Shown here: one piece after another, positions 5,143-23,251 of the stretch
Numbering within the stretch: position 1 is the stretch's first letter
How the letters are laid out: every line of letters starts with the position of its first letter
Sequence record: NC_019503.1
Strand: one strand, 5' to 3'
DNA from: Escherichia phage ime09
DNA length: 64,000 nucleotides
Notes under the pieces: generated by a model
Databases searched by the model: none
The model's input: only the letters and a program-made list of their open reading frames with translations
Told to the model about the DNA's origin: nothing
Translations under genes and position numbers: made by a program

Positions 5143-5823
5143 TTATTTTAATGTTACGAAAGAAGAATTGCGTGTTTCACGAATTAGAACTGATCCGTCA
5201 CGGTTAATGTAGTAAATTAAGCTAAATAAAGTTTGATGTGCCGACGCGTGTTCAAAACTAGTTGGGTGAGATTTCCAATCCGGAGTTTCAGCAATCCACT
5301 GGTAAATCCACCAAGGAACAGTGCAGAATCCTGGATTTTTTCCAATCAGCTGAAGATTCGGACTAAAGTTTTCCGGAAGAGTAAATACAGACGGCTTTTC
5401 AGATTCAATAATCTCAGCTACAGCCTGTTCGAATTTTTCTTCAACAAAAGGAGTATCTTCAATCAAAACATCGGTATTTTCGGGAATTTTATCCATTTCG
5501 ACTACTTCAATTTTAATGTCAGATTTAACCGGAGAATCAATCAGAAGTGCTGCTTCTGGATTGACTTCTTCATCGTCATATTTTAATCCCTCTGCGGCAT
5601 CAGCAGCATTGATTAAGTCTTTAATAGATAACCCATCAGTCTCTGGCATAGGTTCACTAGCGAGCTTCTGGAGGGCTTCTTCAATATCATTAACGATATT
5701 ATCAAAAGATTTATTCTTTTTGACCTTTATACCAAACTGTTCAGCATATTCAGCTAATTTAGCCTTAGCTTCTTTATTATCATCAAGAGCCTTCAGCTCT
5801 GCAATATAATCTTTATCTATCAT
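5143..5823 (-). CDS. inh: Probable Inh (prohead protease inhibitor)
   Basis: 226-aa acidic protein in the position between hoc and uvsW. Confidence 0.6.
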   Translation of the reverse strand: MIDKDYIAELKALDDNKEAKAKLAEYAEQFGIKVKKNKSFDNIVNDIEEALQKLASEPMPETDGLSIKDLINAADAAEGLKYDDEEVNPEAALLIDSPVKSDIKIEVVEMDKIPENTDVLIEDTPFVEEKFEQAVAEIIESEKPSVFTLPENFSPNLQLIGKNPGFCTVPWWIYQWIAETPDWKSHPTSFEHASAHQTLFSLIYYINRDGSVLIRETRNSSFVTLK

Positions 5824-5836
5824 AATATTTCCTCAG

Positions 5837-5844
5837 TATAAATA
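5837..5844 (+). promoter_or_regulatory. Late promoter TATAAATA upstream of uvsW
   Basis: Exact TATAAATA 30 nt upstream of the uvsW ATG. Confidence 0.55.
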
Positions 5845-5873
5845 TAGATATATTTATTACATGGTATTTAGAC

Positions 5874-7385
5874 ATGACTGACATTAAAGTACATTTTTAT
5901 GATTTTAGTCACGTGAGAATTGATTGTGAAGAAAGTACATTTCATGAACTCCGTGATTTCTTTAGCTTCGAAGCTGATGGGTATCGTTTTAATCCGAAAT
6001 ACAAGTATGGTCACTGGGATGGACGAATCCGTCTATTAGATTATAATCGCCTTCTTCCGTTTGGTTTAGTCGGGCAAATTAAAAAGTTCTGCGATAACTT
6101 TGGCTATAAAGCTTGGATTGACCCGCAAATTAACGAAAAAGAAGAATTATCAAGAAAAGATTTTGATGAATGGCTTTCTAAGTTAGAAATCTATTCAGGA
6201 AATAAAAGAATTGAACCACACTGGTATCAAAAAGATGCAGTGTTCGAAGGATTAGTTAATCGTCGTAGAATTCTTAATCTTCCAACATCCGCAGGTAAAT
6301 CTTTAATTCAAGCTTTGCTTGCACGTTATTATTTGGAAAATTATGAAGGTAAAATTCTTATCATTGTTCCAACAACTGCTTTAACAACTCAGATGGCTGA
6401 TGACTTTGTTGATTATCGTTTATTCAGTCATGCAATGATAAAGAAAATCGGCGGCGGAGCATCAAAAGATGATAAATATAAAAATGATGCACCGGTAATT
6501 GTTGGTACATGGCAAACTGTAGTAAAACAACCAAAAGAATGGTTCTCACAGTTTGGAATGATGATGAATGATGAATGCCATCTTGCCACAGGAAAAAGTA
6601 TTTCATCTATCATATCAGGTTTAAATAACTGCATGTTTAAATTTGGTTTGTCCGGTTCATTGCGTGATGGCAAAGCTAATATCATGCAGTATGTTGGAAT
6701 GTTTGGTGAAATATTTAAGCCAGTAACGACTTCTAAATTAATGGAAGATGGACAAGTAACTGAGTTAAAAATTAATAGTATTTTTCTTCGCTATCCCGAT
6801 GAGTTCACTACTAAATTAAAGGGAAAAACTTACCAAGAAGAAATAAAAATTATTACTGGGCTCAGTAAAAGAAATAAATGGATCGCTAAATTAGCTATTA
6901 AGCTTGCACAAAAAGATGAAAACGCTTTTGTCATGTTTAAACACGTATCACACGGTAAAGCTATTTTCGATTTAATTAAAAATGAATACGATAAAGTTTA
7001 TTACGTATCAGGGGAAGTTGATACCGAAACACGCAACGTAATGAAAACCCTAGCTGAAAACGGTAAAGGAATAATTATAGTAGCTAGTTATGGTGTATTT
7101 TCTACTGGTATTTCAGTTAAAAATCTGCATCACGTTGTTTTAGCACACGGTGTTAAATCTAAAATTATTGTATTGCAAACAATAGGTCGCGTATTACGTA
7201 AGCATGGTTCCAAAACAATCGCAACGGTCTGGGACCTCATTGACGATTGTGGCGTTAAACCAAAATCTGCTAATACGAAAAAGAAATATGTTCATTTGAA
7301 CTATCTTTTAAAACACGGCATTGATCGTATTCAGCGCTACGCAGATGAAAAATTTAATTACGTAATGAAAACAGTTAATTTATAA
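5874..7385 (+). CDS. uvsW: UvsW DNA/RNA helicase (SF2)
   Basis: 503 aa; Walker A-like PTSAGKS, DEAD-box variant DECH, helicase C-terminal motifs. Confidence 0.9.
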   Translation: MTDIKVHFYDFSHVRIDCEESTFHELRDFFSFEADGYRFNPKYKYGHWDGRIRLLDYNRLLPFGLVGQIKKFCDNFGYKAWIDPQINEKEELSRKDFDEWLSKLEIYSGNKRIEPHWYQKDAVFEGLVNRRRILNLPTSAGKSLIQALLARYYLENYEGKILIIVPTTALTTQMADDFVDYRLFSHAMIKKIGGGASKDDKYKNDAPVIVGTWQTVVKQPKEWFSQFGMMMNDECHLATGKSISSIISGLNNCMFKFGLSGSLRDGKANIMQYVGMFGEIFKPVTTSKLMEDGQVTELKINSIFLRYPDEFTTKLKGKTYQEEIKIITGLSKRNKWIAKLAIKLAQKDENAFVMFKHVSHGKAIFDLIKNEYDKVYYVSGEVDTETRNVMKTLAENGKGIIIVASYGVFSTGISVKNLHHVVLAHGVKSKIIVLQTIGRVLRKHGSKTIATVWDLIDDCGVKPKSANTKKKYVHLNYLLKHGIDRIQRYADEKFNYVMKTVNL

Positions 7386-15911: not shown

Positions 15912-15914
15912 CAA

Positions 15915-15946
15915 TGGGGACCGAAAGGTCCCCATATTTTTATTTA
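15915..15946 (+). terminator. Intrinsic terminator after gene 54
   Basis: ggggacc-gaaa-ggtcccc followed by atatttttattt. Confidence 0.7.
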
Positions 15947-16230
15947 CGGAATGAAATAAAAGCAGCAACTGAAGCAACTAGACTGTCTTCAATATAAACT
16001 TCAATTTTTACCGGAGCTTCTGACTCAAATTTACCTGTTACTACACCCTGGAAAATGCTTTCAGTCTGTTCTGGCTTTAAAAAATTTTCAGAAGGAAAAA
16101 TTCCGAACTTTTTATCTGTTCCAAAAATTTTGATAAATTCATCATAAACTGCTTCATTAAAAGCGTTATCAGCAGGAATAACGCCTTCAACTACAAGTTC
16201 TTGACCTAAAAAGCGTAAAGAAGATTTCAT
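15940..16230 (-). CDS. Hypothetical protein (alt.-3 position)
   Basis: 96-aa ORF with an AGGA RBS 7 nt upstream of the ATG. Confidence 0.6.
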   Translation of the reverse strand: MKSSLRFLGQELVVEGVIPADNAFNEAVYDEFIKIFGTDKKFGIFPSENFLKPEQTESIFQGVVTGKFESEAPVKIEVYIEDSLVASVAAFISFRK

Positions 16231-16237
16231 TTTGTGT

Positions 16238-16291
16238 TCCTCATGTTATGTCAGTAAAACTATTGTAACACAACACGAGGGACTTGTAAAC
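16238..16291 (-). promoter_or_regulatory. Early-promoter/leader element copy A (GTTTAC -35, TACAAT -10) with a 13-bp hairpin overlapping the alt.-3 Shine-Dalgarno
   Basis: Matches 31848-31901 at 52 of 54 positions; arms 16239-16251 and 16268-16280 pair in the minus-sense RNA with 11 Watson-Crick plus 2 G-U pairs. Confidence 0.55.
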
Positions 16292-18348
16292 TACATCTTG
16301 AACTTTTTAGACATTCCGTTGATGTTAACCAAAGAAGCCAAGATTTGAGAAACTTCGTTTTCCTCTTCTTTTGATTCTTCTACAAGGAATTGATTAAACC
16401 CAGCCATTGGACGAACTTCACCAGTTTCCATTAGATGATCGCCATCATATACCGATTCTTCTAATTGTTCAGAAGGAGGAACGATTGTGCCTTCGATTAG
16501 ATACTTGTTATAAGCAGTTTCTTTCATCATGTACGTGCTTACTTTATTAATCTTCAACAAAATTCCACGCGGTAGAATAACTTCAGCTTCTGATGGAAAT
16601 CCTGATAAATGACCTGGAACGATAACTTTGATTCGCTCAGCCCCTTTAATTACCATACCTACGCTAGTTTCAGCATCTTCATTAGCATATGCAGAATGAC
16701 TACCCATATGCATTAAATCTTCAGCATCAACAGAACCTTCTCCTTCACCAGAAAATACTGCACCGGAATCATCTAGAGCCATATAGTTTTTACCATGCTC
16801 ACCGAAGATATTTGGTTTAAGCGATGTTGATACGAAGTTCTTGAAATAGAACATTTTATTTTCAATATTATGGCGTAAAGTTTTAAAAGTAACTTCTTGT
16901 CCACGATAAAGCGTAGTTCCTGGAGGAAGAACTGATCCTTTTGCGAATGCAGAATCCAGCGTCTCGATGTGTTTAATAGCTCGTTCCATGTATTCTTCAC
17001 GGGTAGAATCTGGTTTACCCAAGAGGAACGAGTTCATTTCAACATATGAATCTGCACAATAATCTTCAATTACATCAGACTCAGCCTGAGTCAGTCCTTT
17101 TGGAGTTACTTCGGTGCTTGCGTATTCATATGCCTGAGCAGCAGATTCATTAATCAATTTATAAATGCCATTCATGACAAATTGAATAATAGCTACTTTT
17201 TCGTCTGGCGTGGCTTTAGAACCTTTAACTAAATCATTGATAATTTTCTTAATAACATCAAAGCTATTAGAAATATTAATGTCAGCGAGATCGCTCAAAA
17301 TTTTATCGGTTTTATAATCAAAAAATTCTTTATTCTTTAAATATTCTTGAGAACCTTGATGTGTTATATCGCTCTGCAGTCTGATAGACGGATCACGTAA
17401 ACGTGCATGGGCCAATGCAATATGATTTCGGAAGCTTTCTAGTTCATAATCGTTAGATTTAAAACGAGAAGCACTTCTCATACCACCGATAGCTCCTTTG
17501 CCGAAGTTTGAACCAATCTGAATAACGCCAGAGTTCATTGGTCCTTCTGCTTTATATACCGGAACTTTAGATTCAAACTCTTGATATTTCTTGGCAGCGA
17601 AGCTATCACCCTGAAGTGAAGCATCGACAGTAGAATATTGAGCTTGTGCTGCTAATCGACGACTAATTTTAGTTTTCTGAATAACAGCTTGATCCGTGCG
17701 CTTATCATTTTCTAAGGCAATAGAAGCAGCAACAGCAACAGCTTTAGGAACAGCATTACCTGTTTTAACATCTACATAAACATCACCAACCTTTGATTCA
17801 ACTTTTGTGAATAACTCAGTTGAAATAGGAGGTACACCTGGAATGTCTTCTAAATTGGCATTTTTACGGTAAACCATAATATATGCATACTTTTTATCAT
17901 AATCCCAGATTTCCTTTAAAAGAACATATCGACCTGCTCCTTTAGTACGTACTAAACGGTCAGCAATAACTTGCATTTGACGAGCAGCGCCATTTGTTTT
18001 ACTTTTTAGTACGCGGAATAGGCATGCGTCAATTTTATACTGTTTCATTGTTTGAAGAGCAGTATCAAAAACCGCATTAATGACACCAATTGGATTTCCA
18101 CCCAAGTTTTTAAGTTTAACGAGCGATAGTTTCTCATTGACACCTATCATTACGATATGCATCATTTTATCGCCTGGCTTAACGTTTTTATTTGTATCAC
18201 CGCCAGAGGTGTATGTACAAAATCTAAATCCAGGAAGCACACTTTCTTCGCCGGCTTGAATAGCAAAAATTTGAGGTATTTTATGCTTAGGATTTAAGTT
18301 AACAACCGGCGCCGAAGCGCCGTCAAATAATTCTGTAATAAGTTCCAT
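16291..18348 (-). CDS. Alt-like ADP-ribosyltransferase, paralog 1 (685 aa)
   Basis: C-terminal R / STS / ExE motifs (LYRGQ, FVSTSL, EAEVILPRG); N-terminus MELITELFD shared with the adjacent paralog. Confidence 0.8.
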   Translation of the reverse strand: MELITELFDGASAPVVNLNPKHKIPQIFAIQAGEESVLPGFRFCTYTSGGDTNKNVKPGDKMMHIVMIGVNEKLSLVKLKNLGGNPIGVINAVFDTALQTMKQYKIDACLFRVLKSKTNGAARQMQVIADRLVRTKGAGRYVLLKEIWDYDKKYAYIMVYRKNANLEDIPGVPPISTELFTKVESKVGDVYVDVKTGNAVPKAVAVAASIALENDKRTDQAVIQKTKISRRLAAQAQYSTVDASLQGDSFAAKKYQEFESKVPVYKAEGPMNSGVIQIGSNFGKGAIGGMRSASRFKSNDYELESFRNHIALAHARLRDPSIRLQSDITHQGSQEYLKNKEFFDYKTDKILSDLADINISNSFDVIKKIINDLVKGSKATPDEKVAIIQFVMNGIYKLINESAAQAYEYASTEVTPKGLTQAESDVIEDYCADSYVEMNSFLLGKPDSTREEYMERAIKHIETLDSAFAKGSVLPPGTTLYRGQEVTFKTLRHNIENKMFYFKNFVSTSLKPNIFGEHGKNYMALDDSGAVFSGEGEGSVDAEDLMHMGSHSAYANEDAETSVGMVIKGAERIKVIVPGHLSGFPSEAEVILPRGILLKINKVSTYMMKETAYNKYLIEGTIVPPSEQLEESVYDGDHLMETGEVRPMAGFNQFLVEESKEEENEVSQILASLVNINGMSKKFKM

Positions 18349-18351
18349 GAT

Positions 18352-20448
18352 TTATCCTTGAACGAACTTGTAAGGCATGTTTGTAATATCTATGCAAGAC
18401 GCAATAATTCCAAGAGATGATTCTACTTTTTGTTTAACATTTGATGAAACAAATGATGCAAAGTCAACTCTGTCTTCTATTTCAATATCACCTGTCATTG
18501 CAACTACTTCACCAGTTTCCATTAGACGGTCACCGTCATAAATTACTGATTCGGTGAGTTCTTCCGTAGTCATAACTTCAGCTTGAATGAGTTTTGTATT
18601 ATTAGATGTTGTTCCGTCGTTATTAGAAGCATCAGTTATTTTATTGACTTTGACCATCAATCCGCGTGGTAGAATAACTTCAGCTTCTGTTGCTATTCCG
18701 AGACTTCCTGGATATACAACATTAACTTTATGAGCTCCATCAATTGCCCATCCTATTTGAACTTTAACGTATTCAGGATTTTCTTTATACGCTCTTATTT
18801 CATTTGGATTAATAGTTATTCCTTCTTCATTTTTATCAACTGTCAATTCATTACGAGCTTCTGGTTCTAAAAGACCAATACCAGCATGTGTAATTCCAAA
18901 ACGTCCAAAAATGATAGGAGTTAAAGAAGTAGATACAAAATTTCTGAAATAGAACACTTTATTTTTAACTAGTGCTTCGTATATAGGAGCAGTCATGCTT
19001 TGAGCACGATAAACTGTAATGCCTTCTGGTATACGGTCACCGTTTTCAAAAGCTGAATCTAAGTTATTTATAGCAGATTCAATTTCTTTTTCACTCATTA
19101 CATCATATCGTTCTGGATTGTAACGACCCAAAAGAAGATTATTGATGTCAGTATATCCTGAACCACAATACTCTCTAATGCCGCGCTTTTGTGATGGAGT
19201 ATATTTAGAACCATCACGGGCAATAGTAATATCAATCATTGGACCTGCACCAATTCCAGAAAAGCTATAAATCATTCGTTTGAGGAATTTAGTTTTTGCT
19301 GCGTTCCAGGAATTTTTAGTTATTTCTTCCCAGACTTCATCTGGCTGTCCTTTACGGGTTTTATTATGTTTATCAAGCCAATTATCTTTATATTCTTCAA
19401 AGAATTGATTAACGGCTGCTGCGTATTTCTCCAAACATTTTATTGAAGTAGTTGGTTCATTTTTAATCGCATTAAGAATTACATCTTTAATTTTTTCAGA
19501 AACTTCATTAACCTCACTTTTTGAAAAGAATTTATAATCATAGTGAAGTTCATCTGCAGTTCCTTCGGCAATGATTTTTGCTGCCTTAGTTTTAGAAGCT
19601 AATGAATTAATTCCAAGCTTCATTTCTTCTGCTTCGGGAATTAAAGGAGCTGTAGCAGGTTTATTGAAATTAGCTGCGGTAGATTCATACTTTTGGAATA
19701 ATTCACTTTCAAATCTAGAAGATTCCAATGACTGACTTTGTGCAATTGCTCTGCGGGAAATTTTAACTTTAACGATTACAGCTTGGTCAGAACGTTTATC
19801 GTTTTCTTGTGCAATAGATGCTGCAATTGCCTCATTTTTAGTTACTTGAGCTCCAGTATCTTTATTGATATAAACATCACCGACCTTCGATTCAACTTTA
19901 GTAAAGAGCTCGGTACTGATTTCCGGAACTCCTGGAATGTCTTCTAATGATACATTTTTGCGATGTATAAGAATATATGCATACTTTTTATCGTAATCCC
20001 AGAGTTCCTTAAGAAGGACGTATCTGCCGCCTGAACGGCTGCGGATAAGTCTATCAGCAATAACTTGAATTTGTCGAGCTTGACCAGCAGTTTTAGACTT
20101 AAGAATACGAAGCATACAGGCATCAATTTTATACTGACGCATTGTTTGCATTGCAACAGTAAAAACTGAATTGATGTAATTAATTGGGCTTGGACCGAGA
20201 CCTTTCAATTTAGCAATTGAACCTTTAGCAGTTAATGTAAAAGGAACAATATGCATCATTTTATCACCCATCTTTAAATCGCGATTAGTATCACCTCCAG
20301 ATGTATAGGTACATAAACGAAAGCCTGGTTGTTCAATTGCGTCATCAACATGAACTGAAAAAATTTGCGGTATTTTCTTCTTTGGATTTAAGTTTGTAAT
20401 CGGAAGAGTAGTATCTTCGTCAAATAATTCTGTAATGAGTTCCATCAT
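18352..20448 (-). CDS. alt: Alt ADP-ribosyltransferase, paralog 2 (698 aa)
   Basis: Motifs VYRAQ, FVSTSL, EAEVILPRG; position next to DNA ligase; candidate minus-strand late promoter 20469-20476. Confidence 0.8.
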   Translation of the reverse strand: MMELITELFDEDTTLPITNLNPKKKIPQIFSVHVDDAIEQPGFRLCTYTSGGDTNRDLKMGDKMMHIVPFTLTAKGSIAKLKGLGPSPINYINSVFTVAMQTMRQYKIDACMLRILKSKTAGQARQIQVIADRLIRSRSGGRYVLLKELWDYDKKYAYILIHRKNVSLEDIPGVPEISTELFTKVESKVGDVYINKDTGAQVTKNEAIAASIAQENDKRSDQAVIVKVKISRRAIAQSQSLESSRFESELFQKYESTAANFNKPATAPLIPEAEEMKLGINSLASKTKAAKIIAEGTADELHYDYKFFSKSEVNEVSEKIKDVILNAIKNEPTTSIKCLEKYAAAVNQFFEEYKDNWLDKHNKTRKGQPDEVWEEITKNSWNAAKTKFLKRMIYSFSGIGAGPMIDITIARDGSKYTPSQKRGIREYCGSGYTDINNLLLGRYNPERYDVMSEKEIESAINNLDSAFENGDRIPEGITVYRAQSMTAPIYEALVKNKVFYFRNFVSTSLTPIIFGRFGITHAGIGLLEPEARNELTVDKNEEGITINPNEIRAYKENPEYVKVQIGWAIDGAHKVNVVYPGSLGIATEAEVILPRGLMVKVNKITDASNNDGTTSNNTKLIQAEVMTTEELTESVIYDGDRLMETGEVVAMTGDIEIEDRVDFASFVSSNVKQKVESSLGIIASCIDITNMPYKFVQG

Positions 20449-20468: not shown

Positions 20469-20476
20469 TATTTATA
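20469..20476 (-). promoter_or_regulatory. Late promoter TATAAATA (minus strand) upstream of alt
   Basis: The plus-strand tatttata is TATAAATA on the minus strand, about 20 nt upstream of a GAGGA RBS and the alt ATG at 20448. Confidence 0.5.
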
Positions 20477-20497
20477 AAATTAAAGGCCCGAAGGCCT

Positions 20498-20686
20498 TTA
20501 ATAATCTATTGGTAAGAGAGTACGGTATATTTCAAACTTTGGACCTTTTTCGTAGGCATCAAATGTTTCTGTGAATTTATTATAAGCATACGCATCTATA
20601 AATTCAATCATAATTTGTGATACAGAAGTAGAAACATCTCCACCTTCTTTTTGAGCCACGACAATTGTTTCTAAATAAGCTTTCAT
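20498..20686 (-). CDS. Hypothetical small protein
   Basis: 62-aa ORF overlapping the stop of gene 30. Confidence 0.45.
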   Translation of the reverse strand: MKAYLETIVVAQKEGGDVSTSVSQIMIEFIDAYAYNKFTETFDAYEKGPKFEIYRTLLPIDY

Positions 20687-22146
20687 AGACCAGTTACCTC
20701 ATGAAAATCACCAAATACATCCTCGAATGTATTAGCTTTAGTTTTATCTTCACGTAAACGAATCGCAATCGGAAGAAATAATTTAACGTAATCAGTGCGG
20801 CCATCAGATTTTAACCAACCGTTGCATTCGCACTCTAGAATTTTTCCAATATAATAATTTTGGTTTTCCATAATGCGAGTACGGTCAAGTTCATGTGATT
20901 TTACACCGGCTTTATCTTTTAAGCCTGAACCAGCATTTACTTTAATTTTTCCACACTCTGATTCAAGAATAAATCCACCTGCTTTGGTAGGGTCTTTACG
21001 GTGAGGATAAATTCCTACAATTTTTAAATCAACATCAATTACTTCTTTAAATTTATAAAGATTTTTTGAACGAGCATTTTCCCACAATCCATCGGTATTT
21101 TTGAGAATAATACCTTCAAGACCTTGGTCAATATACTTTTTATAAATTACCTTAGCTTCATCTAGGTTATTTACTACCTGGTTTTCAATTAAAATTACTT
21201 TATCATATCCTGATGTCATTTGTTCTAGTTTAGAAAAACGCACATCATATTTTAAACGAAACGCCGGAAGACCATATATTTCTACCAACGGAACATAATC
21301 CCAGACCTGAAACTTCATGCATTGAGCTTCTTTTTCAGAAATGGTTCCTTTTAAGGATTTATTGGCGATTCCATTAGAAGTAGTACGAGATTCCGCTACT
21401 TCGGCGAATTCTTTAGCTTTACTAATTTCAGGATAAGCATCAAAAAGAAAATCTAGGCCTTCTGGTTCCTTTTTAACTTGCTCGTGGTATACCAATTCGC
21501 CATCAATTAACACACCTTCTGGATGAATCTGGCGGGCTTCAGCAGTCATTTTGATTAATTCTTCCTTAAGAAGATCTAATCCTAGATATTCATTACCAGC
21601 TCGTGATAAAAGACGAACATCATCTAATTCATCGCCTCTAACTTCAGCAAAACACCGGGCTCCATCTGCTTTTAACTGTGCAAAGGCTGGAAATTTGATA
21701 TTCTTACTAATGCCCTTTTCATCATAAGAACTTGCCAGCATTTGAGGTTGTTCAGGAATTAAACCTGGCCAAACTTTGTTTGCAATAGATACTGAAGCAC
21801 CGCATTCAAGGTCTCGCATCATCACTCGACGCAAAACTTCAACATCATCCTTTTTACCATCGGTGATATATCCAGTTAATTCCTCAATTGCAGCATTTCC
21901 GGTCAATTTCCGAGTAGCTAACGTGAATTCAATGAAGTCAAGCATATCGGTAATAGTCAGCATTCCAAAACTCTGGGTAGCAATATCAGGTTTAGGCCAT
22001 TTCTTGATATAATACTGTAACCCACGAGAATAAGTCAGACGATATACCCGTTTAAGCAATTCATTATCTTTATTCTTTTCAAGAATTGCTTGCTTCTGCT
22101 TAGTTGATCCAATAGATGCTATTTCATTCAGAATTTTAAGAATCAT
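20683..22146 (-). CDS. 30: ATP-dependent DNA ligase gp30
   Basis: 487 aa as in T4; KADG adenylation motif (FAQLKADGARC). Confidence 0.95.
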   Translation of the reverse strand: MILKILNEIASIGSTKQKQAILEKNKDNELLKRVYRLTYSRGLQYYIKKWPKPDIATQSFGMLTITDMLDFIEFTLATRKLTGNAAIEELTGYITDGKKDDVEVLRRVMMRDLECGASVSIANKVWPGLIPEQPQMLASSYDEKGISKNIKFPAFAQLKADGARCFAEVRGDELDDVRLLSRAGNEYLGLDLLKEELIKMTAEARQIHPEGVLIDGELVYHEQVKKEPEGLDFLFDAYPEISKAKEFAEVAESRTTSNGIANKSLKGTISEKEAQCMKFQVWDYVPLVEIYGLPAFRLKYDVRFSKLEQMTSGYDKVILIENQVVNNLDEAKVIYKKYIDQGLEGIILKNTDGLWENARSKNLYKFKEVIDVDLKIVGIYPHRKDPTKAGGFILESECGKIKVNAGSGLKDKAGVKSHELDRTRIMENQNYYIGKILECECNGWLKSDGRTDYVKLFLPIAIRLREDKTKANTFEDVFGDFHEVTGL

Positions 22147-22412
22147 TGCTCATCCTTCAAAGTTTGGTTTACAGCTCTATTATAAATCAATTCATCATTA
22201 AGCTCAGGCAAAGACTTATGATATGTAGTTCTAACTTTATTTCCTTGCATCCAGTGCTTGACGTAAATGAAACCTTGCTCTACACATTTTTTAAAAATTC
22301 GTTCGTCTTTTTGAGCTCGGAATTCTGGATTGCATCTAAAAAATTGATTTACGTGACCGTAATCACGTGTAGTATTACCTTCATTTTCATAAATAGTGTG
22401 AACGACAAACAT
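22143..22412 (-). CDS. Hypothetical protein (30.1 position)
   Basis: 89-aa ORF; minus strand chosen for operon consistency. Confidence 0.55.
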   Translation of the reverse strand: MFVVHTIYENEGNTTRDYGHVNQFFRCNPEFRAQKDERIFKKCVEQGFIYVKHWMQGNKVRTTYHKSLPELNDELIYNRAVNQTLKDEQ

Positions 22413-23251
22413 TAGAATGCTCCTTGGAAAATATTATCACCACAAGTAGGTCTATTATACAAATACTCTATGCCACCAGGTTTAATATAGTTCCATGTCT
22501 GAAACGGATGTGTCTGATATGGATGATATAGATGATTATAAGGATTAAACCCAGGCGTTCTCCAGGTAGTGTTCCAACGAAAAGAATCGTTTTTAACCAT
22601 CTTCTCAATTAAATCTTTTATAGCTTTTTCACTATCAAAACTTTCTTTATTTTCCTTCGGCGAAAAAAGCTTATTTTCTACATCATTCCATGTATAAACT
22701 CGCTGCGCAGTTTTTGGAATATTGTCACGCTCTCCTCGAGCCATCCAATAAACAGGAACATTTAATATTTCACTAGCATGATCGCAGTGATGAGCGAGAT
22801 CGTCAATATAACAAATTACGTTATATTTCTCTTTTGCCTTTTTGAACAACTCTTCTTTTGAAGAATCATGACCGCACATCATTACTTCCGAGAAGGCACC
22901 AGGAAAAAGAGCATTCAAATTAAATTGACGATTCAACAGAGCGTCAATAGAATCACCCAATGCTGTAACAGCTACAAAATTATAATCTTCTTTTAATTTG
23001 TTAATTACACACAGGGCATCTTTATATGGAGACAAGTAACGAATAAAATCTGATCGATTGTATTTTTCAATTAGCTTGACACCAAGTTCTTCATCACAGT
23101 TAAATAGTTTACCTGGAGAAATAAATTTCTCATCTTGGATCATTTTTAAAATATGTTCTAACGGAAGATTATATTTCTGAGCAAAATAAGGAAGACCTGA
23201 TTGCCAGCTTAAACATACTCCATCAATATCAGTTAAAATAGTAGGCTTCAT
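22412..23251 (-). CDS. Hypothetical protein (30.2 position)
   Basis: 279-aa ORF in tight array. Confidence 0.6.
   Translation of the reverse strand: MKPTILTDIDGVCLSWQSGLPYFAQKYNLPLEHILKMIQDEKFISPGKLFNCDEELGVKLIEKYNRSDFIRYLSPYKDALCVINKLKEDYNFVAVTALGDSIDALLNRQFNLNALFPGAFSEVMMCGHDSSKEELFKKAKEKYNVICYIDDLAHHCDHASEILNVPVYWMARGERDNIPKTAQRVYTWNDVENKLFSPKENKESFDSEKAIKDLIEKMVKNDSFRWNTTWRTPGFNPYNHLYHPYQTHPFQTWNYIKPGGIEYLYNRPTCGDNIFQGAF

Follow-up and report, generated by a model that had tools for sequence, protein, structure and literature searches.

A tandem pair of Alt-like ADP-ribosyltransferase genes in Escherichia phage ime09: an allelic form of T4 alt and the full-length form of a T4 remnant

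The stretch of 64,000 nucleotides (nt) from Escherichia phage ime09 analysed here (NC_019503.1; the whole stretch is called the window below) carries two neighbouring genes for Alt-like ADP-ribosyltransferases (ARTs), alt and alt2. The window belongs to a Tequatrovirus; over 24 kb it shares about 98% identity with its best-matching records in the phage collection. An earlier note, made from the letters of the window, had described two adjacent Alt-like paralogs, and the list of open reading frames (ORFs) bears this out, with adjacent minus-strand ORFs at 16291-18348 (685 amino acids, aa) and 18352-20448 (698 aa). The gene order is that of T4: the pair is flanked by alt.1 and gene 30 at one end and by alt.-3 and gene 54 at the other. 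Of the two lengths, the 685 aa (plus stop) of the downstream copy, alt2 (16291..18348, minus strand), holds, whereas the 698 aa of the upstream copy counts an extra upstream ATG. The start of alt is most likely the second ATG, at 20445, which would give 697 aa plus stop (18352..20445, minus strand), because the Shine-Dalgarno sequence GAGG lies 5 nt from the second ATG but only 2 nt from the first and because the identical ATGATG of T4 has its start annotated at the second ATG.

Both genes encode proteins of three parts: the N-terminal module is conserved, the helical centre evolves fast, and the C-terminal part is an ART domain of the R-S-ExE type. In alt the N-terminal alpha/beta module comprises aa 1-239 (19729..20445; Pfam PF26846 Tevenvirinae_ADPRT) and the ART catalytic domain about aa 414-625 (18571..19206); the counterparts in alt2 are aa 1-238 (17635..18348) and about aa 416-625 (16474..17103), all on the minus strand. 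The PF26846 matches were precomputed for near-identical proteins of the databases and for the two genes at locus L007, which belongs to a more distant two-copy phage; the family was not reported for the window proteins themselves in a direct Pfam scan. In a BLASTP alignment that covers their full length, the two proteins are 41% identical (E = 3e-162), which is far beyond chance and confirms that they are paralogs. Both begin with the same nine residues, MELITELFD, and residues 1-238 are 55-75% identical. The centre has diverged to 12-20% identity, the ART core to 30-47% and the insert of 77-79 residues between STS and ExE to about 12%. The common N-terminus and the divergent central regions that had been noticed earlier were thus both recovered by the alignment.

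The R / STS / ExE motifs quoted in the earlier note were found in both copies, as LYR482GQ, FVS507TS509L and SE587AE589VILPRG in the downstream protein and as VYR480AQ, FVS505TS507L and TE587AE589VILPRG in the upstream one. The corresponding minus-strand codons of alt2 lie at 16903-16905 (R482), 16828-16830 (S507), 16822-16824 (S509), 16588-16590 (E587) and 16582-16584 (E589), and those of alt at 19006-19008 (R480), 18931-18933 (S505), 18925-18927 (S507), 18685-18687 (E587) and 18679-18681 (E589). Both proteins match Pfam PF03496 ADPrib_exo_Tox well above the cut-off of 23.4 bits (alt2, 3e-20 and 72.7 bits; alt, 2e-37 and 129 bits), and both match phrog_802, "Alt-like RNA polymerase ADP-ribosyltransferase", from end to end (alt2, E 7.9e-256; alt, E 2.1e-272). 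A library of 1.84 billion representative proteins gave 113 related clusters, and 53 full-length representatives (clustered at 50% identity) were aligned with the two window proteins to give a family alignment of 55 sequences. Ten columns are invariant in this alignment (in Alt2 numbering M1, Y430, D465, R482, S507, E587, E589, P593, R594 and G595), and both copies match all of them, so that neither is without a catalytic residue. It is known that the E577A variant of T4 Alt is catalytically inactive (PMC11404850); provided that the numbering of the paper starts at the upstream in-frame ATG, the mutated position is in all probability the second Glu of the ExE motif, which would be E576 in RefSeq. 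With the full catalytic set in place, it is plausible that both Alt and Alt2 are competent enzymes, as had been proposed.

Compared with sequences of the Protein Data Bank (PDB), Alt places its YR on the catalytic Arg of CdtA/iota Ia and its EAE on their EYE motif, and the family profile matches C3-like enzymes, Certhrax and Vip2. A phmmer search of the PDB sequences with Alt2 alone returned nothing at E up to 0.01, and no solved Alt structure was present in the PDB copy searched. AlphaFold models of good quality, built from the family alignment, contain a C3/Vip2/iota-type ART fold in both proteins, with a mean predicted local distance difference test score (pLDDT) of 79 and a predicted template modelling score (pTM) of 0.74 for Alt2, and 83 and 0.78, respectively, for Alt. 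The layout is the same in both models: an N-terminal alpha/beta part to residue ~195, a helical linker and bundle to ~415, the ART domain, and a tail that carries a conserved YDGD...G motif. The 77-residue insert of Alt2 between STS and ExE is of low confidence, with pLDDT below 50 for residues 519-553, and the model of Alt is likewise uncertain in its insert. C3-like, Vip2, iota Ia/CDTa and Vis toxins (the R-S-E clade, PF03496) have the same catalytic fold and R/STS/ExE triad as the phage enzymes, but their sequence identity to them is only 13-24%, and the phage enzymes differ by an insert of 55-89 residues between STS and ExE, by ~415 additional N-terminal residues and by the conserved YDGD...G C-terminal tail. 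We take the insert before ExE to sit where C3-like enzymes have their substrate-recognition loop. ModA and ModB of T4 are likewise phage R-S-E ADP-ribosyltransferases encoded by a tandem pair with diverged targets; they differ in that the literature describes them as small, made after infection, unpackaged and without the Tevenvirinae_ADPRT N-terminal module.

The upstream copy is the ortholog of T4 alt, with which it agrees in genomic position, three-part architecture, R/STS/ExE residues and position of the late promoter. Its identity to T4 Alt (682 aa) is 70% overall and uneven: residues 1-240 are 97-100% and the C-terminal tail 93-100% identical, whereas the helical centre is 11-35% and the ART core 50-80% identical. 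Because of this unevenness the upstream copy is assigned to a separate allele class. In DNA searches with the variable parts, 329 phage records had the module of the 697-aa type and 175 that of the T4 type; these and the other occurrence counts are taken from the phage collection, as an IMG/VR scan gave only 5 loci, too few for a census. The difference between the alleles spans 18560-19730 of the window, against 5650-6790 of the T4 locus (L001), and concerns mainly the centre and the ART core. Both allele classes occur together with alt2, the phages Bas35 and JoYop pairing an alt of T4 length (682-683 aa) with it.

The first ~350 nt of alt2 match T4 alt.-1/alt.-2 nearly base for base, but T4 alt only to about 70%. 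Judged by this match, the downstream gene is the intact form of the T4 remnants alt.-1 and alt.-2. Relative to full-length alt2, T4 has lost 1 nt, which causes a frameshift, and a further 1,699 nt, and has kept about 350 nt. The endpoints of the larger deletion are marked by a 9-nt direct repeat, CTAAAAAGT, with one copy at 18001..18009 (alt2 nt 340-348) and the other at 16302..16310 (alt2 nt 2039-2047), both on the minus strand. A deletion between the two repeats, together with the frameshift, explains the T4 alt.-1/alt.-2 remnant at 5034-5460 of L001. The T4 RefSeq notes trace alt.-1 and alt.-2 to a duplication of alt; their wording, "duplication of the first part of gene alt", says too little, since the ancestor was a full-length paralog.

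Whether the duplication was already catalogued had been left undecided in the earlier note, and it is. Besides the T4 notes, Nolan et al. 2006 (PMC1524935) reported alt duplicates in T4, RB49 and 44RR, that of 44RR being full length. In the phage collection, 355 records hold at least 80% of the 4.8-kb two-gene region, and many of them annotate two Alt-like genes or alt_1/alt_2. The centre and ART module of alt2 are found in 400 phage records at ≥90% DNA identity, and the protein is 97-100% identical in about 395. RB32 names the full-length gene "alt.-2"; in the BASEL phages Bas35, Bas37 and Bas38 it likewise lies between alt and alt.-3 and is labelled "ADP-ribosyltransferase Alt2". The novelty is low because the pair is already annotated and named in T4-like phages. 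What is added here is incremental and not a discovery: a tidier orthology with its allele classes, the mechanism of the T4 deletion and other losses, the recurrent fusions and the evidence for selection.

In comparisons of alt2 with two close orthologs, 9 and 12 non-synonymous differences stand against 62 and 68 synonymous ones. The ratio of non-synonymous to synonymous divergence (dN/dS) is about 0.04 (0.037 for the 9/62 pair) and 0.02 for the ART domain alone; against the 74%-identical ortholog from the more distant two-copy phage of locus L007 it is 0.137. Thus alt2 is a live gene under strong purifying selection. Between alt and alt2 the synonymous sites are saturated, with a synonymous divergence (dS) of 1.3-1.6, and the duplication is therefore old. 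In the N-terminal module dS is 1.57 and dN/dS 0.18. Since synonymous sites are saturated here too, the common N-terminus has been kept by selection, and recent gene conversion was rejected as the cause of the similarity. Among the 55 aligned sequences, some ART domains are clearly nearer to Alt2 and others to Alt, and one of the database proteins closest to Alt2 beyond the cluster of Alt2 itself carries the name of phage JS10, two observations that together hint that the Alt/Alt2 split could predate the Tequatrovirus group.

The pair has been reduced to one effector gene in several ways. In phage sutha (PV245934; L012, 4501-6704) an intact alt runs straight into the final 128 nt of alt2, of which a 38-codon ORF with the annotation Alt-like remains; this is a third, independent way of losing alt2, unlike that of T4. 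Four database proteins (P0003 and P0004 among them) are clean chimeras, with an N-terminus that is 100% alt-type and a remainder that is 97-100% alt2-type, and their crossovers lie near residues 40, 100, 185 and 215. At locus L009 (5001-7055) the chimera is the sole gene between alt.1 and alt.-3, and at locus L008 (5001-7061) it directly follows alt.1 on a contig that ends just beyond. The same single-gene layout with a fifth breakpoint is present in ECML-134, a finished isolate genome of which the alt locus (L010, 2742-4802) was the part inspected. All observed alt::alt2 breakpoints are inside the N-terminal module, and the junctions fall in tracts common to both genes, of 21 nt in ECML-134 and of 11 and 8 nt in two contigs. 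The longest exact match between alt and alt2 is 22 nt, which is shorter than the k-mers typical of short-read assemblers. Because the genes share no longer match than this, the fusions point to real unequal recombination; assembly artefacts are unlikely in view of this short match, the clean and differing breakpoints and the one finished genome, with the metagenome cases being less certain. Phages were thus seen with both effectors, with the alt effector only or with the alt2 effector only at this locus, and no phage with neither effector was seen among the loci examined. An apparent triplication in Shigella phage sb4 (PQ666542), which unequal crossing-over might have yielded as its reciprocal product, was rejected, as its three ART features are frameshift-split genes. 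In this record (L011) the ligase gene, alt, alt2 and gene 48 are all split, which looks like uncorrected sequencing frameshifts.

The expression signals suggest that alt and alt2 form one late unit. A T4-type late promoter box, TATAAATA, is located at 20469..20476 on the minus strand, 23 nt upstream of the alt start codon. Upstream of it, directly after the alt.1 stop, a terminator-like hairpin (AAAGGCC-TTCG-GGCCTTT; 20482..20499, minus strand) was read from the sequence, which would insulate alt from upstream early and middle transcription; a conserved terminator upstream of alt has been described (Nolan 2006, PMC1524935). A scan found no late promoter box between alt and alt2. The simplest reading is that the two genes share one late promoter and would be co-transcribed late, because no box separates them, because only 3 nt (18349-18351) lie between the alt stop and the alt2 start, and because the Shine-Dalgarno sequence of alt2, AAGGA (18355..18359, minus strand), is within the last codons of alt. 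A second TATAAATA inside alt, at 19065-19072, is probably a chance occurrence, as the window contains 12 such boxes against 8.1 expected.

Alt of T4 loses 6 amino acids after translation (GenBank X15811), and the protease gp21 trims a small N-terminal peptide from gpAlt, of which there are about 40 copies per head (PMC9958956). The peptide MELITE (20428-20445 in alt, minus strand) and the LFD that follows are identical in Alt, Alt2 and T4 Alt, cleavage being known for T4 Alt, and E6 and F8 are each kept in at least 90% of the Alt family. The T4 prohead protease has a cleavage preference for L/I-x-E, which MELITE fits. Judging from this common N-terminus, packaging and injection of Alt2 are plausible, in keeping with the earlier suggestion that both proteins may be packaged in the head. 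The other part of that suggestion, potentially different targets, is likewise plausible for Alt and Alt2. T4 Alt helps to evade the Mokosh type I defence, and Alt of Bas37 (bas37_0033) fails to replace it in this role (preprint 10.1101/2025.11.20.689424). The Bas37 locus is 97.9% identical to the region analysed here, and its Alt is the same 697-aa allele. The Bas37 result gives experimental support to functional divergence within the Alt family.

In the proposed sequence of events, alt and alt2 would be co-transcribed late in infection, and both proteins would enter the prohead core via their common N-terminal module, lose MELITE to the gp21 protease and be injected together with the phage DNA. 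With NAD+, each enzyme would then mono-ADP-ribosylate arginines in host proteins of its own, distinct set, with a specificity that may be set by the divergent centre and the insert of 77-79 residues just before ExE. Unequal recombination in the N-terminal module collapses the pair into alt::alt2 fusions, and separate deletions have removed alt2 in T4 and in sutha. The best explanation of the locus, which we consider likely as a whole, is accordingly worded as an old and unstable alt-alt2 duplication, the products of which would both be competent, made late, packaged, injected and directed at different targets.

Several points weigh against this explanation. In the laboratory at least, alt2 is dispensable, T4 and sutha being without it, and the HIDEN-SEQ preprint flags bas37_0033 (Alt), not bas37_0032 (Alt2), as conditionally essential (10.1101/2025.11.20.689424). 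Only Alt corresponds to a characterised gene: a literature search for Alt2 with phage terms found no paper on its function, and no virion proteomics mentioning it, enzyme assay or knockout phenotype was found. At residue 10 Alt2 has Gly where Alt has Glu, which could make Alt2 behave differently if packaging or cleavage needs this position, and the structural argument for different targets is weak because the part of the ART domain that is likely to set specificity is modelled poorly. Part of this also speaks for Alt2 being a redundant duplicate on its way out that adds only a higher dose of Alt activity, given that alt2 has been deleted at least twice, in T4 and in sutha, that fusion has reduced the pair to a single gene on five or more occasions, that T4 grows well without alt2 and that bas37_0032 went unflagged in the preprint. 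On the other hand, an intact centre and ART module of alt2 is carried at ≥90% identity by about 400 phage records, the gene has a dN/dS of 0.04 (ART domain, 0.02), and Alt2 keeps all family-invariant residues. Outside the N-terminal module the paralogs are only 12-47% identical and so are not simple dosage copies, and it is the alt2 effector that the fusions keep and the alt effector that they lose. Redundancy is quite improbable on this evidence.

Alt2 might also be active without being injected, either acting late in the producing cell or serving mainly as a component of the prohead core. The literature searches found no proteomics that places Alt2 in virions, the late promoter would put the protein in the late-infected cell anyway, and the Gly in place of Glu at position 10 again fits. 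Such a role is still unlikely when it is considered that the N-terminal module is 55-75% identical under purifying selection, that MELITE, the counterpart of the 6 residues recorded in X15811 as removed from T4 Alt, is identical in both proteins, and that natural fusions join the alt2 effector to the alt N-terminus in the only alt gene of the locus. A different chemistry, in which the reaction of Alt2 is not that of plain NAD+ with protein arginine, for example by linking NAD-capped RNA to proteins or by modifying nucleic acids, has precedents in T4 ModB, which attaches RNA chains to host proteins (PMC10468400), and in ARTs that modify mRNA or DNA (PMC11618068), and the insert before ExE is unique to Alt2. 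However, an ExE motif with a Vis/iota/Vip2-like fold is typical of arginine-specific protein ARTs, and no sequence feature of Alt2 points to nucleic-acid binding, which makes this alternative very improbable.

Going beyond the preferred explanation of two packaged enzymes with different targets, alt and alt2 can tentatively be regarded as exchangeable effector cassettes, in which a constant packaging module is combined with diversifying ART "warheads", each directed against a different target or defence; we hold this possible, with less than even confidence. Three warhead types are seen in Tequatrovirus, namely T4-type Alt, 697-aa-type Alt and Alt2, and recombination in the constant module may reshuffle the warheads that are injected, with neutralisation taking place in the first seconds of infection. 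If this were true, Alt2 would be an enzyme injected to counter host defences, much as T4 Alt is required against Mokosh type I.

Alt is the textbook case of an enzyme that is injected along with the phage DNA and reprograms the host. Two enzymes of this kind are encoded by most natural T4-like phages, the second of which laboratory T4 has lost. Alt2 has gone unstudied because the model phage lacks the gene. Bas37 and phages with an alt2-only fusion, such as ECML-134, are ready material for addressing the function of the second ART.

The remaining features of the locus concern its flanks. Upstream of alt lies alt.1 (20498-20686), and beyond it gene 30, encoding DNA ligase (20683-22146). Homologs of 30.1 and 30.2 are visible around 22412-23251 on the minus strand, and the rest of the 30.x block is expected beyond if synteny with T4 continues. 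In T4 this block includes 30.3/adfN, a reported anti-DarTG1 factor (HIDEN-SEQ preprint, 10.1101/2025.11.20.689424). On the other side, alt.-3 (15940..16230, minus strand; 96 aa, PF17602/DUF5498, phrog_1739) is the last gene of the leftward block, upon which the baseplate genes 54 and 48 converge. A promoter of sigma-70 or T4 early-like type (TTTACA and TACAAT spaced by 17 nt, with an upstream TG) is located at 16262..16290 on the minus strand, after the alt2 stop and before alt.-3, so that alt.-3 has an early-like promoter of its own here. Mutants of T4 alt.-3 with a C-terminal extension escape CmdTAC by blocking the degradation of CmdA (Vassallo et al. 2024, PMC11618068). The block is closed by a bidirectional terminator hairpin at 15914..15935, between the converging gene 54 and alt.-3.

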